NCBI GenBank assembly: GCA_943789275.1
Contig: CALSTM010000003.1
Coordinates: 510,001-542,000 of the forward strand
Direction of reading: 5' to 3'
DNA from: Candidatus Poseidoniaceae archaeon
Lineage (GTDB): Archaea; Thermoplasmatota; Poseidoniia; Poseidoniales; Poseidoniaceae
DNA length: 32,000 nucleotides
The notes beneath the pieces were generated by a model. The model saw only the letters and a list, made by a program, of their open reading frames with translations, made no database searches and was not told the DNA's origin. Position 1 is the first letter of the stretch, and each line of letters starts with the position of its first letter. A program made the position numbers and the translations under genes. Of this stretch, positions 22,220 to 25,737 are shown piece by piece.

Positions 22220-22561
22220 ATGCTGCAACGTGCATTAGCCGGATTATGCCGCCTTGAAGGCGTCAATCATGCTATGCTTCTCGATGATTCAGGTCAACTC
22301 TTGGCCAGTGTTGGAGAGGAAGGTATTTTTGCACCTGTTGACCAAGCCGTTGAGATGATGAGCGTCGCTCAAGAAACGGGCCATGCACTTGGCTTGGGTC
22401 AAGTGTATGAGGTCTGGTGCGAGAGTACTTCACGCATGGTTCTTGATGTGGTTGGACCGAATCGCATCATCGTACTCAGCGGAGACGGTGGTCGGTTAGC
22501 ACGATGGCGACATGCGCTTGACCGCGACCGTCGAATTTTAGCGACAACCCCACGAATGTGA
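22220..22561 (+). CDS. Stand-alone Roadblock/LC7 (MglB-like) domain protein
   Basis: LQRALAGLCRLEGVNHAMLLDDSGQLLASVGEEG...AQETGHALGLGQVYEVWCESTSRMVLDVVGPNRIIVLSGD follows the Robl_LC7 pattern: a leading helix, G-V-x-x-A-x-L-x-D-x-x-G, then two strands and a helix. The track start is TTG 22184; the first ATG is 22220. Confidence 0.7.
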   Translation: MLQRALAGLCRLEGVNHAMLLDDSGQLLASVGEEGIFAPVDQAVEMMSVAQETGHALGLGQVYEVWCESTSRMVLDVVGPNRIIVLSGDGGRLARWRHALDRDRRILATTPRM

Positions 22562-22569
22562 GTGATACC

Positions 22570-25500
22570 ATGTTTAATCTACCCGAAGGAAAACCAATTG
22601 AAGGAACAATCAGCGTCGAAAGCGGTTCTATACAACCGTTTGACCATGGTGTGATTAGCACCTGGGTTGGTCGACGAAAAACACCTGCTGGACACCGTTT
22701 GGTTCGTGCAGGTCGAATCGTTGCTTGGCTTGCTGAATCTGGTAAGGGCAAACTGTTGCTTGCAGGTAAGGAGGCTCGACTTCGTCTTGAAGACCTTGAA
22801 TCCACGGAAAACAGCAGGTACATTGCTGGAGAGTATTCACTTGCAGGACTCGGAAGCGTCGCTGAAGTTGTTCCTGAAGCGTTTGAGCACGCAGCAGACC
22901 GCCAGGGACTTCTTGCACGTGGCGATGCAGTCGTCCGACTTCTGTCACGAGATTTGTCAGCAGTTCTCCGAACAATGGTTGAACGAGAAACCGTTCGAGG
23001 AGCGATTGCCATCGATCAAGGTATGTTGATTGACAGCATTGGTGAACTACCGAACGAAGCAGAAACCCTTGCCCGAGAAATCCATTCGACACTGGAAGCG
23101 ATGAACATCAGTATTGTCGAAGACGACAGCATGACCAGCGGTAGCCATTGGACCATGCACCACGAAGGTGGTTCACTTCTTTTGGCTCAAGCAGGAGATG
23201 TATCCTTGGGCGTTTGGACCGAAGCCAATACCAATCATGCACGACTTATTTCGGCAGCAGCAGCCGTACTGGAAGGCGAACTCGGTGCAGTCGGTGCTTC
23301 TGGCGGGCCATTGCCTGAAGGTTTTGTTCTGCGTGAAGGTCGAGGCGGTCCTGATGCCATTCTTTCCATGTTAACTGCAGGAGTCAAAGAAGAAGTGACC
23401 GGTCACCTTCAATCCGGCCAATCATCGACCGCTGTATCGGTCCTTTTAGCTCGAGGTGTACCTGTTGGAATCTCTGCTCCCGAAGGCCAATCTTTGGAGG
23501 AAGCAATGCTCACCTTCACCGATTCATCCCGAATCCTCAAACTTCACCGCTTACCTGCAGGAACCATTGTTTCCCGTGACTCGGGTACGGTTGATGAATT
23601 CCGACTCGACGATTTCCACGACCTTCTTGTCACCCTTCGAACACGTTCTGAAAGTCGTCGTGCCAATTTGAAGAGTAAACTCACCGATTTGTTTGGATTT
23701 GAAATCGGAATGGAACAACTGCGCAAGAACCGTTCCAGTGCGACCTTCCCTGAAACAGTAGAAGTGGTCAGTGGAGGATTGCCAGGCGACGCAACTCAAC
23801 CCTTGGCAGTCGACGCCGGTTTGCGACGCCGATTGGAATCAGCAGAACACCTCATCAACGATTTGGAAAAAGAAAAAGCCGTCCTCACCAGCCGTCTTGA
23901 AGAGGCCCAATCTGGAAAGAAGGCTGCCCAAATCCTGGCCCGTGAAGCATCCGAATCACGACAAGAGTTCCTTACCAAAGTCGAATCCTCGAATTCTTCT
24001 CTCGACTCATTGCAATTGGATGTTGCAGAATCTCGTGCTGCGGCAGAACAGGCTGAAAACCGAGCAGAACGCCTTGTTAAGCGTGTGAATGAACTTGAAC
24101 ATCAGGTGAGCGTCCGTGCTGCTGAATTGGCTAAGGCTCTCGGCCATGCAGATTCAAGCGAAACTCTTCGTTCATCCATTGAGGAGTTGGCATTGAAAGA
24201 AGCACAACTCAACGGTGACCTCTTGGCAGGAAGTGAAAGATTGGCAACCATCCGTCAACAATCGGATGATGATGAACGCCGACTTCGAGTTCTTCAAGAA
24301 CAAGTTGAGGCAACACGAGAGCGTCATACTCGAGCGCAAGCGGAAGCCATGATGATGGAAGACAAGATCCACTCGAATTCATCTGAATTGGAGGCCATCG
24401 AATCGGAAGCGAAAGCGGCCCGCCGCAGAGCAGAAGAGGATCGCAATCGCTTGGCTACCGACGAGGCACGTCAAGCACAAGTTCAGGCTGAACTTCGTGA
24501 ATTGATGTCTGAGCGCCGTCAAACGCTACGTGAATTGGGTGACCTTGGCGCTCGCAGAGGACATGCTGAGGCCGAACTTGTATCGCTTATCGAGCGTGCT
24601 GAAGCACTTTCGCAAGCGCATGAAGAGGCACTCTCTGATATTCAAGAAGCAGAACGCCTACGAGCAAGACTGGCTGAAGAGCCACTTGCTCAGGCACTGC
24701 TTGACGATGCCTCAACGTTCGATGGTCTTGGACCGGTGCTTGAACGGCTTGAGAATGCCAGAGCATTGGGTTACTCAGTTACACTGCTCGACCGTGCCGT
24801 CGAGCGTGGTTTGCAAGTGATTCAATCAACCGTGGACCATGTTGCGGCAACGCCACGGCATCTTCTTTCCAGTGAAGTCATGACGCTCCTTGAACGACAA
24901 GTTCCTCAAACCGCAGGTGCAGTTCGCGGACTCGCACGCTGGTCAGTTCAACAACGGCTCGAACATCAGTTGGGAGAAACAGTCGGCCATGTGGTTCTTG
25001 ACCTTGAACATCTGCTGGAAGATTTCGACCGTTCCATCACGATGTTGCGTCGATTAAGAAATGTCCTTGAACAACTTGTTCGACTCGGAGCACCTCCACA
25101 CGAAGTGGATGCATTGCTGAACAATTGCACACGGCCCGAAGCGCTACCAAGTATTGCACAAGCCACTCGTAAACTCATTCAAGTCGCTCTTGATGACATC
25201 TATTTGGAAGCGGACCAACGAGATGCAGGTGAAGCGATTGCCTTGGAAGACACCGCTCGTGTCCTTGAAGAACTGATTACCCAATTGGACGCTTCAGGAC
25301 TCGCTGATGGCGTCCCAAGCGGTATGCTTTGGGAATTCCAACGCGACGGCTTGTTGCCGTATGAACGCAATACAATCCCCGATGCTCAACGAACACCGGT
25401 CGAACAGGCGATGTTGAGCGATATGGAACCCTCACTTGCCGGACAGGTTCCAGTTTCACTCGATGTTGTTGTCGAAACAGCTGAAGTTGATGAATCAGGT

Positions 25501-25737
25501 TGGGAGCAAATGCCTACACCTGTTGATGAAGATGACTCTGATACGAAGGAATCAGCCCCGACCAGTACGCCGGTCACGGTCAATGAATCAGAACACAGTG
25601 ATGAGCGGGCCCAACTTGAGGCTGAATTGGCTCGACTTGATGCATCATGGGATCGCAGGAAGGAACCTGCTGTGGAACAGACTACCGACCCAGCTTTGGC
25701 TGCTCTTGAAGCACGACTGTCGAATCTTGATTTCTGA
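22570..25737 (+). CDS. Giant (~1055 aa) multidomain protein: N-terminal beta-rich module, Roadblock/LC7-like domain, second PATAN/DUF4388-like module, ~290-aa coiled coil, helical domain, acidic disordered tail
   Basis: The track ORF starts at GTG 22558 (overlapping the upstream stop). ATG 22570 is preceded by GTGAGTGA. The Roadblock-like segment (track aa ~131-235, nt 22948-23262) reads LSAVLRTMVERETVRGAIAIDQGMLIDSIGELPNEAETLAREIH...HWTMHHEGGSLLLAQAGDVSLGVWTEANTNHARL. Heptad-rich E/R/A/L/Q sequence runs aa ~421-708 (nt 23818-24681). The tail is D/E/S/T/P-rich and ends LEARLSNLDF. Confidence 0.85.
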   Translation: MFNLPEGKPIEGTISVESGSIQPFDHGVISTWVGRRKTPAGHRLVRAGRIVAWLAESGKGKLLLAGKEARLRLEDLESTENSRYIAGEYSLAGLGSVAEVVPEAFEHAADRQGLLARGDAVVRLLSRDLSAVLRTMVERETVRGAIAIDQGMLIDSIGELPNEAETLAREIHSTLEAMNISIVEDDSMTSGSHWTMHHEGGSLLLAQAGDVSLGVWTEANTNHARLISAAAAVLEGELGAVGASGGPLPEGFVLREGRGGPDAILSMLTAGVKEEVTGHLQSGQSSTAVSVLLARGVPVGISAPEGQSLEEAMLTFTDSSRILKLHRLPAGTIVSRDSGTVDEFRLDDFHDLLVTLRTRSESRRANLKSKLTDLFGFEIGMEQLRKNRSSATFPETVEVVSGGLPGDATQPLAVDAGLRRRLESAEHLINDLEKEKAVLTSRLEEAQSGKKAAQILAREASESRQEFLTKVESSNSSLDSLQLDVAESRAAAEQAENRAERLVKRVNELEHQVSVRAAELAKALGHADSSETLRSSIEELALKEAQLNGDLLAGSERLATIRQQSDDDERRLRVLQEQVEATRERHTRAQAEAMMMEDKIHSNSSELEAIESEAKAARRRAEEDRNRLATDEARQAQVQAELRELMSERRQTLRELGDLGARRGHAEAELVSLIERAEALSQAHEEALSDIQEAERLRARLAEEPLAQALLDDASTFDGLGPVLERLENARALGYSVTLLDRAVERGLQVIQSTVDHVAATPRHLLSSEVMTLLERQVPQTAGAVRGLARWSVQQRLEHQLGETVGHVVLDLEHLLEDFDRSITMLRRLRNVLEQLVRLGAPPHEVDALLNNCTRPEALPSIAQATRKLIQVALDDIYLEADQRDAGEAIALEDTARVLEELITQLDASGLADGVPSGMLWEFQRDGLLPYERNTIPDAQRTPVEQAMLSDMEPSLAGQVPVSLDVVVETAEVDESGWEQMPTPVDEDDSDTKESAPTSTPVTVNESEHSDERAQLEAELARLDASWDRRKEPAVEQTTDPALAALEARLSNLDF

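Follow-up and report, generated by a model that had tools for sequence, protein, structure and literature searches.

A Roadblock domain in a large coiled-coil protein of Poseidoniales and its two small partner genes: a possible membrane-linked scaffold

Here, we analyzed a stretch of 32,000 nucleotides (nt) from a Candidatus Poseidoniaceae archaeon (contig CALSTM010000003.1, positions 510,001 to 542,000; hereafter the window) and found a three-gene module around a gene for a protein of 1055 amino acids (aa), in which a divergent Roadblock domain is combined with two other small α/β domains, a long coiled coil and a helical C-terminal domain. The gene upstream encodes a second, small Roadblock protein, and the gene downstream encodes a small protein with two predicted transmembrane segments (TM1 and TM2; two-TM protein). 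We tentatively suggest that this module is a membrane-linked Roadblock-heterodimer scaffold or tether specific to Poseidoniales, an interpretation to which we give slightly less than an even chance. What is probably new here is the Roadblock-scaffold architecture, a C-terminal domain that probably had not been seen before and the two previously unnoticed partner genes. The function of the large protein is not established, and the most eye-catching claim made for it from the sequence in an earlier note (hereafter the original prediction), namely that two PATAN/DUF4388 modules flank the Roadblock domain, was not supported. Poseidoniales (Marine Group II) are among the most abundant archaea of the surface ocean; to our knowledge, none of them is in pure culture and their cell biology is essentially unknown.

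The large gene and its family

The open reading frame (ORF) listing of the window contained an ORF at 22558..25737 (+), with 1059 codons counted from GTG. The first 420 residues of its product were searched with HMMER against 1.84 billion cluster representatives, which returned only 65 relatives, all of them collinear. Because the alignments that reach the N-terminus all open at query residue 5, a methionine, the true start is probably ATG 22570 (MFNLPEG...), and GTG 22558 lies 12 nt too far upstream. Residue numbers in this study refer to the 1055-aa protein counted from this ATG; those of the original prediction, based on the 1059-aa product, are higher by four. Apart from this probable shift of the start, the ORF does exist as the single multidomain protein that had been proposed, and the domain boundaries drawn for it were accurate.

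The 1055-aa protein is clearly real. It has 517 homologues at 90% clustering, the best 120 of which are full-length and 64-96% identical, and full-length relatives found by HMMER reach down to 27% identity. Relatives are encoded in 279 species-level genomes; the taxonomic labels given next refer to the best 80 of these 279 loci. All of these 80 came from Poseidoniales or from unclassified euryarchaeotal/Thermoplasmatota metagenome-assembled genomes (MAGs), bar one odd label: a 62%-identical copy of the gene, with the usual archaeal neighbourhood, is located on a contig labelled 'Verrucomicrobiales bacterium' (L074, NZEQ01000033.1), which is probably a mis-binned MAG contig. The homologues are named Candidatus Poseidoniaceae, Poseidoniales or Thalassarchaeaceae (Marine Group II), and the divergent members carry the names Thalassarchaeaceae or Poseidoniaceae, so that both families of the order are represented. 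Judged from the retrieved sequences, the protein family is restricted to Poseidoniales.

Public labels of the homologues are either 'hypothetical protein' or the COG-derived 'regulator of Ras-like GTPase activity (Roadblock/LC7/MglB)', and a few homologues are labelled 'Zn-ribbon' or 'TOPRIM nuclease', probably as an artefact of the coiled coil. No paper describing this family was found in a literature search, and the literature linking Poseidoniales or Marine Group II to Roadblock proteins or small GTPases held only passing mentions in Asgard reviews. With uninformative public names and no paper found, the architecture can be considered undescribed, as had been suspected when it was first noticed. 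When the full 1055-aa protein was compared with Pfam, NCBIfam and PADLOC, coiled-coil noise was all that appeared (Rad50, SMC, JetC arms and UPF0242); membership in Rad50, SMC, JetC or UPF0242 was rejected, the matches being weak and of the coiled-coil type only. No transmembrane segment was predicted in the protein.

A divergent Roadblock domain in the N-terminal head

The N-terminal head consists of three small α/β domains (D1, D2 and D3), with D2 in the middle. In the AlphaFold2 (AF2) model of the N-terminal 420 residues (31-sequence alignment, 24-97% identity; mean predicted local distance difference test score (pLDDT) 76, predicted template modelling score 0.62), all three were well modelled, with low-confidence linkers between them. 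D2 adopts the order α-β-β-α-β-β-β-α, with helices at aa 126-137, 164-182 and 223-234 and strands at aa 142-149, 152-158, 192-198, 201-208 and 211-217. A Foldseek search of the N-terminal model against the PDB gave 85 matches at E ≤ 0.001. The top 50 were all Roadblock/LC7 proteins (E 2.7e-5 to 3.5e-4, TM-score normalised to the target 0.57-0.79), including p14/MP1, LAMTOR4/HBXIP, Asgard Roadblocks and MglB of Thermus and Myxococcus.

A profile of aa 120-240 built from 15 divergent members matched Streptomyces CvnB5 (3leq_A) with an E-value of 4.1e-5 over aa 141-224, which places the Foldseek signal independently in D2; the same profile gave weak matches to LAMTOR4 and Asgard Roadblocks (E about 0.1). 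In Pfam, no Robl_LC7 match was obtained with the product of the 1059-codon ORF at E ≤ 10, and weak matches were present in 4 of 14 divergent homologues (best E 6e-4). On the agreement of the AF2 fold, the top 50 Foldseek matches and the CvnB5 profile match, D2 is judged to be a divergent but genuine Roadblock domain, at the superfamily level and below the curated threshold of Pfam PF03259. Thus, the Roadblock-like domain that the original prediction had placed at aa ~131-235 was recovered.

A three-gene cassette

Directly upstream of the large gene lies the small Roadblock/LC7 gene (Table 1). The ORF listing opens it at TTG 22184, and orthologue starts indicate that ATG 22220 is probably the right one; the ORF ends 8 nt before the ATG of the large gene. 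Twelve of 12 diverse orthologues matched Robl_LC7 (best E 7.7e-6), and the family profile matched an Asgard Roadblock protein (9jue_D, E 0.008) over aa 5-108. This gene adjoins the large gene in 77 of the 80 related loci. More divergent loci also have a same-strand small ORF directly upstream, with 100/139 aa in L081 and 101 aa in L165; neither had a Pfam match, and the L081 ORF is weakly similar to the Roadblock protein of the window. In L166, a 33-aa upstream fragment is cut by the contig end.

On the other side, the 80-aa gene opens 9 nt past the stop of the large gene, with GAGGTG in front. Its product matched no Pfam family and has the layout GRxExxGRxYPxxLER - TM1 - short acidic loop - TM2 - E..GR..Q; the positive-inside rule would place its two termini in the cytoplasm. 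Of 60 parsed Poseidoniaceae loci, 54 have a same-strand ORF of 62-87 aa with at least one predicted transmembrane segment that starts no more than about 70 nt past the stop, and in most of these 54 the gap is 8-12 nt and two segments are predicted. Orthologues of the two-TM protein with the same motifs were also identified in Thalassarchaeaceae L165 (86 aa) and in L166 (83 aa). Thus, all three genes occur together in Poseidoniaceae and, among the three divergent loci that were inspected, in two, of which one is from Thalassarchaeaceae.

The spacings of 8-9 nt and the shared strand argue for co-translation of the three genes. Neither of the two flanking small genes had been mentioned in the original prediction, and they change the functional picture of the large protein.

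Upstream of the small Roadblock gene, we also observed an A/T-rich intergenic region that contains a short GC hairpin, CCCCCTTTAGGGGG (about 22152-22165), and a TATA-like ATAAAAG at 22166-22172.

Table 1. Features of the three-gene cassette in the window (residue numbers refer to the 1055-aa protein)
Feature	Position	Strand	Evidence or remark
Upstream small Roadblock/LC7 gene, 113 aa (probable start)	22220..22561	+	Pfam Robl_LC7 E 2.9e-5
Large gene (probable start)	22570..25737	+	1055 aa plus stop; relatives' alignments open at query residue 5, Met
D1, N-terminal β-rich α/β domain of unassigned fold, aa 1-115	22570..22914	+	AF2 pLDDT 84-92
D2, Roadblock/LC7 domain, aa 126-234	22945..23271	+	AF2 fold, Foldseek, profile match to CvnB5
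D3, α/β domain, aa 252-327, then helices 346-355 and 361-390	23323..23739	+	AF2 pLDDT 83-92
G/P-rich flexible linker, aa 396-416	23755..23817	+	Variable length
Coiled coil, aa 417-704, 288 residues	23818..24681	+	Heptad periodicity, zero Pro, register
C-terminal all-α domain (modelled), aa 705-935	24682..25374	+	AF2 pLDDT 85-93 across most
Acidic tail, aa 936-1055	25375..25734	+	Net charge -21, mostly disordered, length-variable
Downstream two-TM protein, 80 aa	25747..25989	+	Two hydrophobic segments, predicted transmembrane helices

A coiled coil of invariant length

The head is joined to the rest of the protein by the flexible linker, which has a mean pairwise identity of 18%, with indels (pLDDT below 50 over aa 399-420). 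The following 288 residues are a canonical heptad coiled coil. The Fourier power of their hydrophobic positions at period 3.5 gave z = 20.5 against shuffles, with no excess at period 3.6 as for a plain amphipathic helix (z = -0.8), and the period-3.5 signal was not seen in the N-terminal domains, the C-terminal domain or the tail. None of the 288 residues is a proline (p about 6e-5 given the composition of the protein). The heptad-rich segment noted before at aa 421-708 (nt 23818-24681) is therefore far beyond chance. One heptad register fits aa ~408-519 best throughout, and another fits aa ~520-673; the single shift sits at a conserved break, ALG(D/H)xxSSE (about aa 520-530), and a second conserved break, ELGDLGARRG, is located at aa 653-662. 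The two LGD-containing breaks rank among the most conserved stretches. The last 33 residues of the coiled coil were modelled by AF2 as one helix.

Among 14 divergent members (mean identity 41%), no indel column was found in aa 417-704, and insertions in the coiled coil were present in 0 of 177 sequences. Even aa 417-497, which are only 23% identical in the 14 members, are yet indel-free, and aa 498-530 (59%) and aa 641-704 (61%) are conserved like the C-terminal domain. If the coiled coil formed a single extended parallel rod, it would be about 43 nm long (288 × 0.1485 nm). A mutual-information scan for an antiparallel hairpin showed no consistent i+j diagonal, and with an effective number of sequences (Neff) of 16 it was dominated by noise.

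Such a long uninterrupted heptad coiled coil would also suit a filament-forming or cytoskeletal protein of the crescentin or Myxococcus AglZ/FrzS type that assembles into higher-order structures and shapes the cell, in which the Roadblock head serves only as an oligomerisation or regulatory cap. Weak coiled-coil-type matches in single members, e.g. to the crescentin rod, and the apparently wide retention of the gene in the order are in line with this idea. On the other hand, all coiled-coil matches are far below family thresholds, and an invariant rod length together with a highly conserved globular C-terminal domain is typical of tethers, rulers and adaptors and less so of filaments that self-assemble. 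We therefore consider a filament rather improbable.

The same segment could be read as the antiparallel intramolecular arm of an SMC/Rad50/JetC-like chromosome organiser, which would join the N-terminal head and the C-terminal domain; an indel-free arm is what antiparallel pairing would demand, and over aa about 430-708 weak matches were obtained with NCBIfam (Rad50, E 2.3e-7; SMC, E about 1e-5) and PADLOC (JetC, E 0.007). However, the Rad50 and SMC scores are about 24-30 bits against cut-offs of 567-1087 bits and involve the arms only. There is no conserved Walker A motif, the sole GxxxxGK[ST] string being confined to one subclade, where it lies in a β-hairpin loop of D3, and no CxxC hook, the window protein having a single Cys. 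The two heads are Roadblock-type and all-α and not ABC ATPase halves, and the covariation scan, which lacked power, showed no sign of antiparallel pairing. This possibility is very improbable, and ABC ATPase membership of the large protein is refuted by the missing Walker A and CxxC motifs.

A conserved C-terminal domain and an acidic tail

In the AF2 model of aa 670-1055 (29 sequences, mean pLDDT 77), the last coiled-coil helix (aa 671-703) continues, past the invariant E704-P705, into an all-α domain. The helices of this domain include aa 738-765, 779-838 (60 residues), 856-883 and 886-909. It is the most conserved part of the protein, with a mean pairwise identity of 60% versus 36% for D1-D3, and contains dozens of invariant residues; conserved motifs are EPLAQALL, LLDRAVERGL, VRGLTRWSVQQRLE, RPEALP, ALDDIYLEADQRD and LWxFQxxGxLPxE. 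No Pfam or NCBIfam family was matched by aa 705-935, and a Foldseek search of the domain against the PDB gave a best E-value of 1.2 and TM-scores of at most 0.31. Based on the predicted structure, we regard it as a candidate new domain or fold family.

The tail that follows is rich in D/E/S/T/P (51% of the last 90 aa). In the AF2 model, a disordered acidic stretch (aa ~958-1005) is followed by two amphipathic helices, the first at aa 1006-1029 with the motif DERAxLEAELAxLD (pLDDT about 80-85) and the second at aa 1041-1051 (conserved segment to aa 1055) with the motif ALxxLExxLSxL[DE]-hydrophobic-COOH (pLDDT 78). These two motifs are related to each other, and both are conserved. A helical C-terminal domain and a D/E/S/T/P-rich tail ending in SNLDF, as proposed for this region, are thus both present.

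We also considered a MIM1/Vps4 relationship, as the tail helix LEARLSNLDF resembles the MIM1 of ESCRT-III and a nearby AAA gene has a Vps4_C match. This idea was rejected: the AAA protein is Cdc48 (CDC48_N and CDC48_2 in orthologues), and the Arg of the motif is not conserved.

A possible membrane-linked Roadblock scaffold

Roadblock domains characteristically act as dimers, such as the MglB homodimers and the LAMTOR2/3 and LAMTOR4/5 heterodimers. In the model that we propose for the cassette, the small Roadblock protein would pair with D2 to form a pseudo-symmetric two-Roadblock platform, a pairing suggested by gene linkage and by family precedent. This platform may bind a regulatory partner, classically an NTPase by analogy. 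The coiled coil would dimerise or fold back to give a fixed-length rod, spacer or ruler, and the C-terminal domain and/or the tail helices might bind the two-TM protein at its cytoplasmic ends. Assembled in this way, the three proteins would form a scaffold tethered to the membrane, with the Roadblock platform kept at a set distance from it. As the cassette lies in a conserved neighbourhood of housekeeping genes and is found in Poseidoniaceae as well as Thalassarchaeaceae, a basic role in cell organisation (division site, envelope or nucleoid positioning, or polarity) appears more likely than an accessory motility switch.

Several observations weigh against such a scaffold. The small Roadblock protein and D2 show hardly any sequence similarity (hhalign E 0.007-0.02), and no client NTPase for the platform was identified. 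In L081, the most divergent locus, the downstream gene encodes a 448-450-aa FG-GAP membrane protein and not a two-TM protein. The mutual-information scan, uninformative at Neff 16, did not distinguish between a parallel dimer and an intramolecular hairpin. In addition, synteny across Poseidoniales extends over the whole 30 kb around the cassette (thrS, two large genes without assigned function, pyrBI, ttuA, a 404-aa gene, DUF58, DUF4350, PRC-barrel and cdc48), so that adjacency alone is weaker evidence for a functional link.

A further-reaching possibility, which seems doubtful at present, is that the cassette represents an unrecognised order-wide archaeal cell-organising system, in which a membrane-anchored ruler of fixed length would carry a Roadblock heterodimer that works without a dedicated MglA-type GTPase or with some other NTPase. 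If true, a design like that of Ragulator would have arisen outside the Asgard-eukaryote lineage. In one version of this order-wide ruler, D1 and D3 would be the first archaeal, highly diverged PATAN domains. Whatever its exact role, the combination of a Roadblock domain, a length-invariant rod, a novel domain and a membrane partner offers a testable handle on the cell organisation of Poseidoniales.

D1, D3 and the PATAN question

In the AF2 models, D1 and D3 are real and confidently modelled small α/β domains. D1 has the order β-β-β-β-α-β-α over aa 26-100 (strands 26-33, 41-46, 49-56 and 62-65, helix 66-79, strand 82-88, helix 91-100), a conserved N-terminus (MFxLPxGxP) and the invariant residues P5, G7, G27, A69 and L73. 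D3 has the order β-α-β-β-β-α-β (strand 252-258, helix 261-273, strands 278-282, 289-294 and 297-302, helix 309-316, strand 322-327). D1 gave no Pfam, PDB or PATAN match, and D3 gave no Pfam or PDB sequence match.

The original prediction took both segments for PATAN/DUF4388 modules and read the head as PATAN-Roadblock-PATAN. At E ≤ 10, Pfam DUF4388 (PF14332) matched neither the window protein nor the D1 sequences of 17 members and the D3 sequences of 6, and it was absent from the 25 families listed in an E ≤ 1 Pfam scan of 14 full-length members. The sensitivity of this model was checked with a consensus-like sequence, which covered the whole model and scored 127.8 bits (E 2.9e-37; gathering score 25 bits). 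This sequence led to two real PATAN proteins and these to 80 real PATAN loci from metagenomes. No PATAN structure was found in the PDB by sequence.

When D1 and D3 were compared by hhalign with a profile of the 80 PATAN sequences, the E-values were 0.12 for D1 and 0.056 for D3; the negative controls gave 0.022 (D2 Roadblock) and 0.21 (small Roadblock family). Because the Roadblock control D2 scored 0.022, the resemblance of D1 and D3 to PATAN is not above background. The alignment of D3 covers 48 columns in the very register that had been proposed, and its vtG, G-P-V and E-E-A anchors (the invariant glycines preceding β2 and at the turn between β3 and β4, and the invariant alanine in helix 2) land on the conserved G, G and GeeA of PATAN. 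The order of elements in the D3 model also appears collinear with the PATAN sequence pattern, as far as the PATAN order can be read from the hydrophobic alternation of its consensus. D1 is modelled without the first PATAN helix. The C-terminal helix motif of PATAN, [LM]EG[LMA]RR[LM]DE, was found in 0 of 177 family members; all 80 of the fetched PATAN domains contain it by construction, as the motif was the retrieval pattern, but it is also invariant in the two PATAN proteins found independently.

Thus, of the two segments proposed to follow the PATAN pattern, what stands is that both are confidently modelled small domains and that the register of D3 is as suggested; their likeness to PATAN is not above chance. 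With no Pfam match, hhalign values no better than those of a Roadblock control and no signature motif in the family, PATAN membership of D1 and D3 is not supported by these comparisons. D3 is the better candidate but not statistically assignable, and could at most be a very remote relative of PATAN.

Three other ideas about these domains were rejected. An origin of D1 and D3 as duplicates of one module was examined by hhalign, which gave only a 16-residue 'PEAF/PEGF' stretch (E 0.07). DUF2226 appeared in D1 of one member (E 0.094) and was not reproduced in 16 others, as expected for a chance match. A P-loop in D3 was suggested by GHIQ[AS]GKS (GxxxxGK[ST]), which 99 of 177 members carry in the loop between β2 and β3 (aa ~278-285, about 23401-23424); the window protein reads GHLQSGQS there, divergent members differ, and the Walker A-like string is coincidental.

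If D1 and D3 were PATAN domains after all, the large protein could belong to an archaeal MglA/MglB/PATAN polarity circuit that regulates a type-IV-pilus-like machine (archaellum or pili) via a small GTPase encoded elsewhere. Archaellum genes are patchy within Poseidoniales. In addition to the D3 model and the three coinciding anchors, this explanation can draw on the fact that a PATAN-Roadblock-GTPase association is real in bacteria: the bacterial PATAN gene P0186 (L084, 8699-10492) divergently adjoins a Robl_LC7 gene and an Arf-family small GTPase gene, and the association is stated in an earlier study (bioRxiv 10.1101/2021.06.11.447907). At the locus of the large gene it was not reproduced. 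No GTPase domain was found in the scanned ORFs of the window or within ±6-10 kb in L081, L165 and L166, so that in these four lineages the MglA-type context motivating a PATAN-MglB link is absent within about 10 kb. The lack of any DUF4388 match or signature helix, a first helix missing from D1, and D1 and D3 not being detectably related to each other also speak against it, and the occurrence of the family in both Poseidoniaceae and Thalassarchaeaceae, next to patchy archaellum genes, would oppose a role in motility only. Overall, we find a PATAN-based polarity circuit unlikely.

Other genes in the neighbourhood

The window also carries genes for a thermosome, HMG-CoA synthase, PyrB/PyrI, Cdc48 and a TtuA-like protein. 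A defence-system reading of the cassette genes and the 404-aa neighbour was rejected, because PADLOC had no match bar a weak coiled-coil one to JetC (E 0.0066) and the neighbourhood is conserved and of housekeeping type.

Two large ORFs without Pfam domain are located at 15016-17568 (+) and 17565-19424 (-), encoding 850 and 619 aa, respectively. Their relatives recur nearby in 45 and 54 of 80 Poseidoniaceae loci, and genes for 581 and 1001 aa without Pfam domains occupy the same position in L081. Downstream of the cassette, a convergent cluster at 25990-30148 (-) comprises the 404-aa protein, DUF58 (about 93% identical across Poseidoniaceae) and DUF4350. We take this cluster to resemble the MoxR-associated DUF58 clusters; no MoxR gene is visible here. 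A small ORF at 30226-30498 (-) lies between the DUF4350 and Cdc48 genes, and the orthologous position in L081 and L165 is occupied by a PF05239 PRC-barrel gene. PRC-barrel proteins (CdpB) are archaeal division factors in haloarchaea.

Comparison with known systems

PATAN domains (DUF4388, PF14332) have so far been reported from bacteria, where most stand alone or are joined to REC domains (bioRxiv 10.1101/2021.06.11.447907). The small α/β size, the element order of D3 and three Gly/Ala anchors are alike. Unlike PATAN, D1 and D3 have neither significance in hidden Markov model or profile-profile comparison nor the signature C-terminal helix motif.

The overall design of a regulatory α/β head followed by a long rod recalls Myxococcus FrzS and AglZ, in which a small N-terminal regulatory α/β domain precedes a long coiled-coil rod. 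However, their head is a pseudo-receiver domain and not a Roadblock domain, they lack a conserved C-terminal helical domain, and no sequence similarity to the large protein was detectable. AglZ is also cited in a census of MglB-family proteins (PMC4316618).

With MglB, MglC and CvnB (PF03259), D2 shares the α-β-β-α-β-β-β-α Roadblock fold, and its best profile match is CvnB5. Two Roadblock genes lie side by side, as in systems with two MglB-like proteins (PMC4316618; PMC9481161). Known MglB-type proteins are single domains of about 100-160 aa, usually encoded within four genes of an MglA-type GTPase. In contrast, D2 forms part of a 1055-aa protein that also comprises two further α/β domains, a 288-aa coiled coil and a putative novel C-terminal domain, and no GTPase gene was found within about 10 kb of the large gene. 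Because it fails the Pfam threshold, has no coupled GTPase and carries the domain inside a 1055-aa scaffold, the large protein contains a Roadblock/MglB-type module but is not a typical member of that group. In a 2014 census, 328 of 749 prokaryotic MglB-family proteins were 'orphans' without a neighbouring GTPase, none of them characterised (PMC4316618); here, such a domain is built into a large scaffold without an adjacent GTPase.

By analogy, the closest design to that of the cassette would be Ragulator (LAMTOR), members of which are among the top structural matches of D2 (1veu_B, 2zl1_B, 5y3a, 6b9x and 6ehp). In Ragulator, the p14-MP1 and LAMTOR4-HBXIP Roadblock heterodimers are held on the membrane by LAMTOR1. 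The likeness lies in paired Roadblocks with a separate small membrane anchor, a parallel that the operon suggests. At 12-22% identity to D2, there is no sequence relationship beyond the fold. The anchor would be a two-TM hairpin here, whereas that of Ragulator is a lipidated wrap-around protein; a coiled coil of 43 nm, if extended, intervenes, and no Rag-like GTPase is known here. Nevertheless, paired Roadblocks with a candidate membrane anchor, as in eukaryotic Ragulator, may occur in a non-Asgard archaeon.

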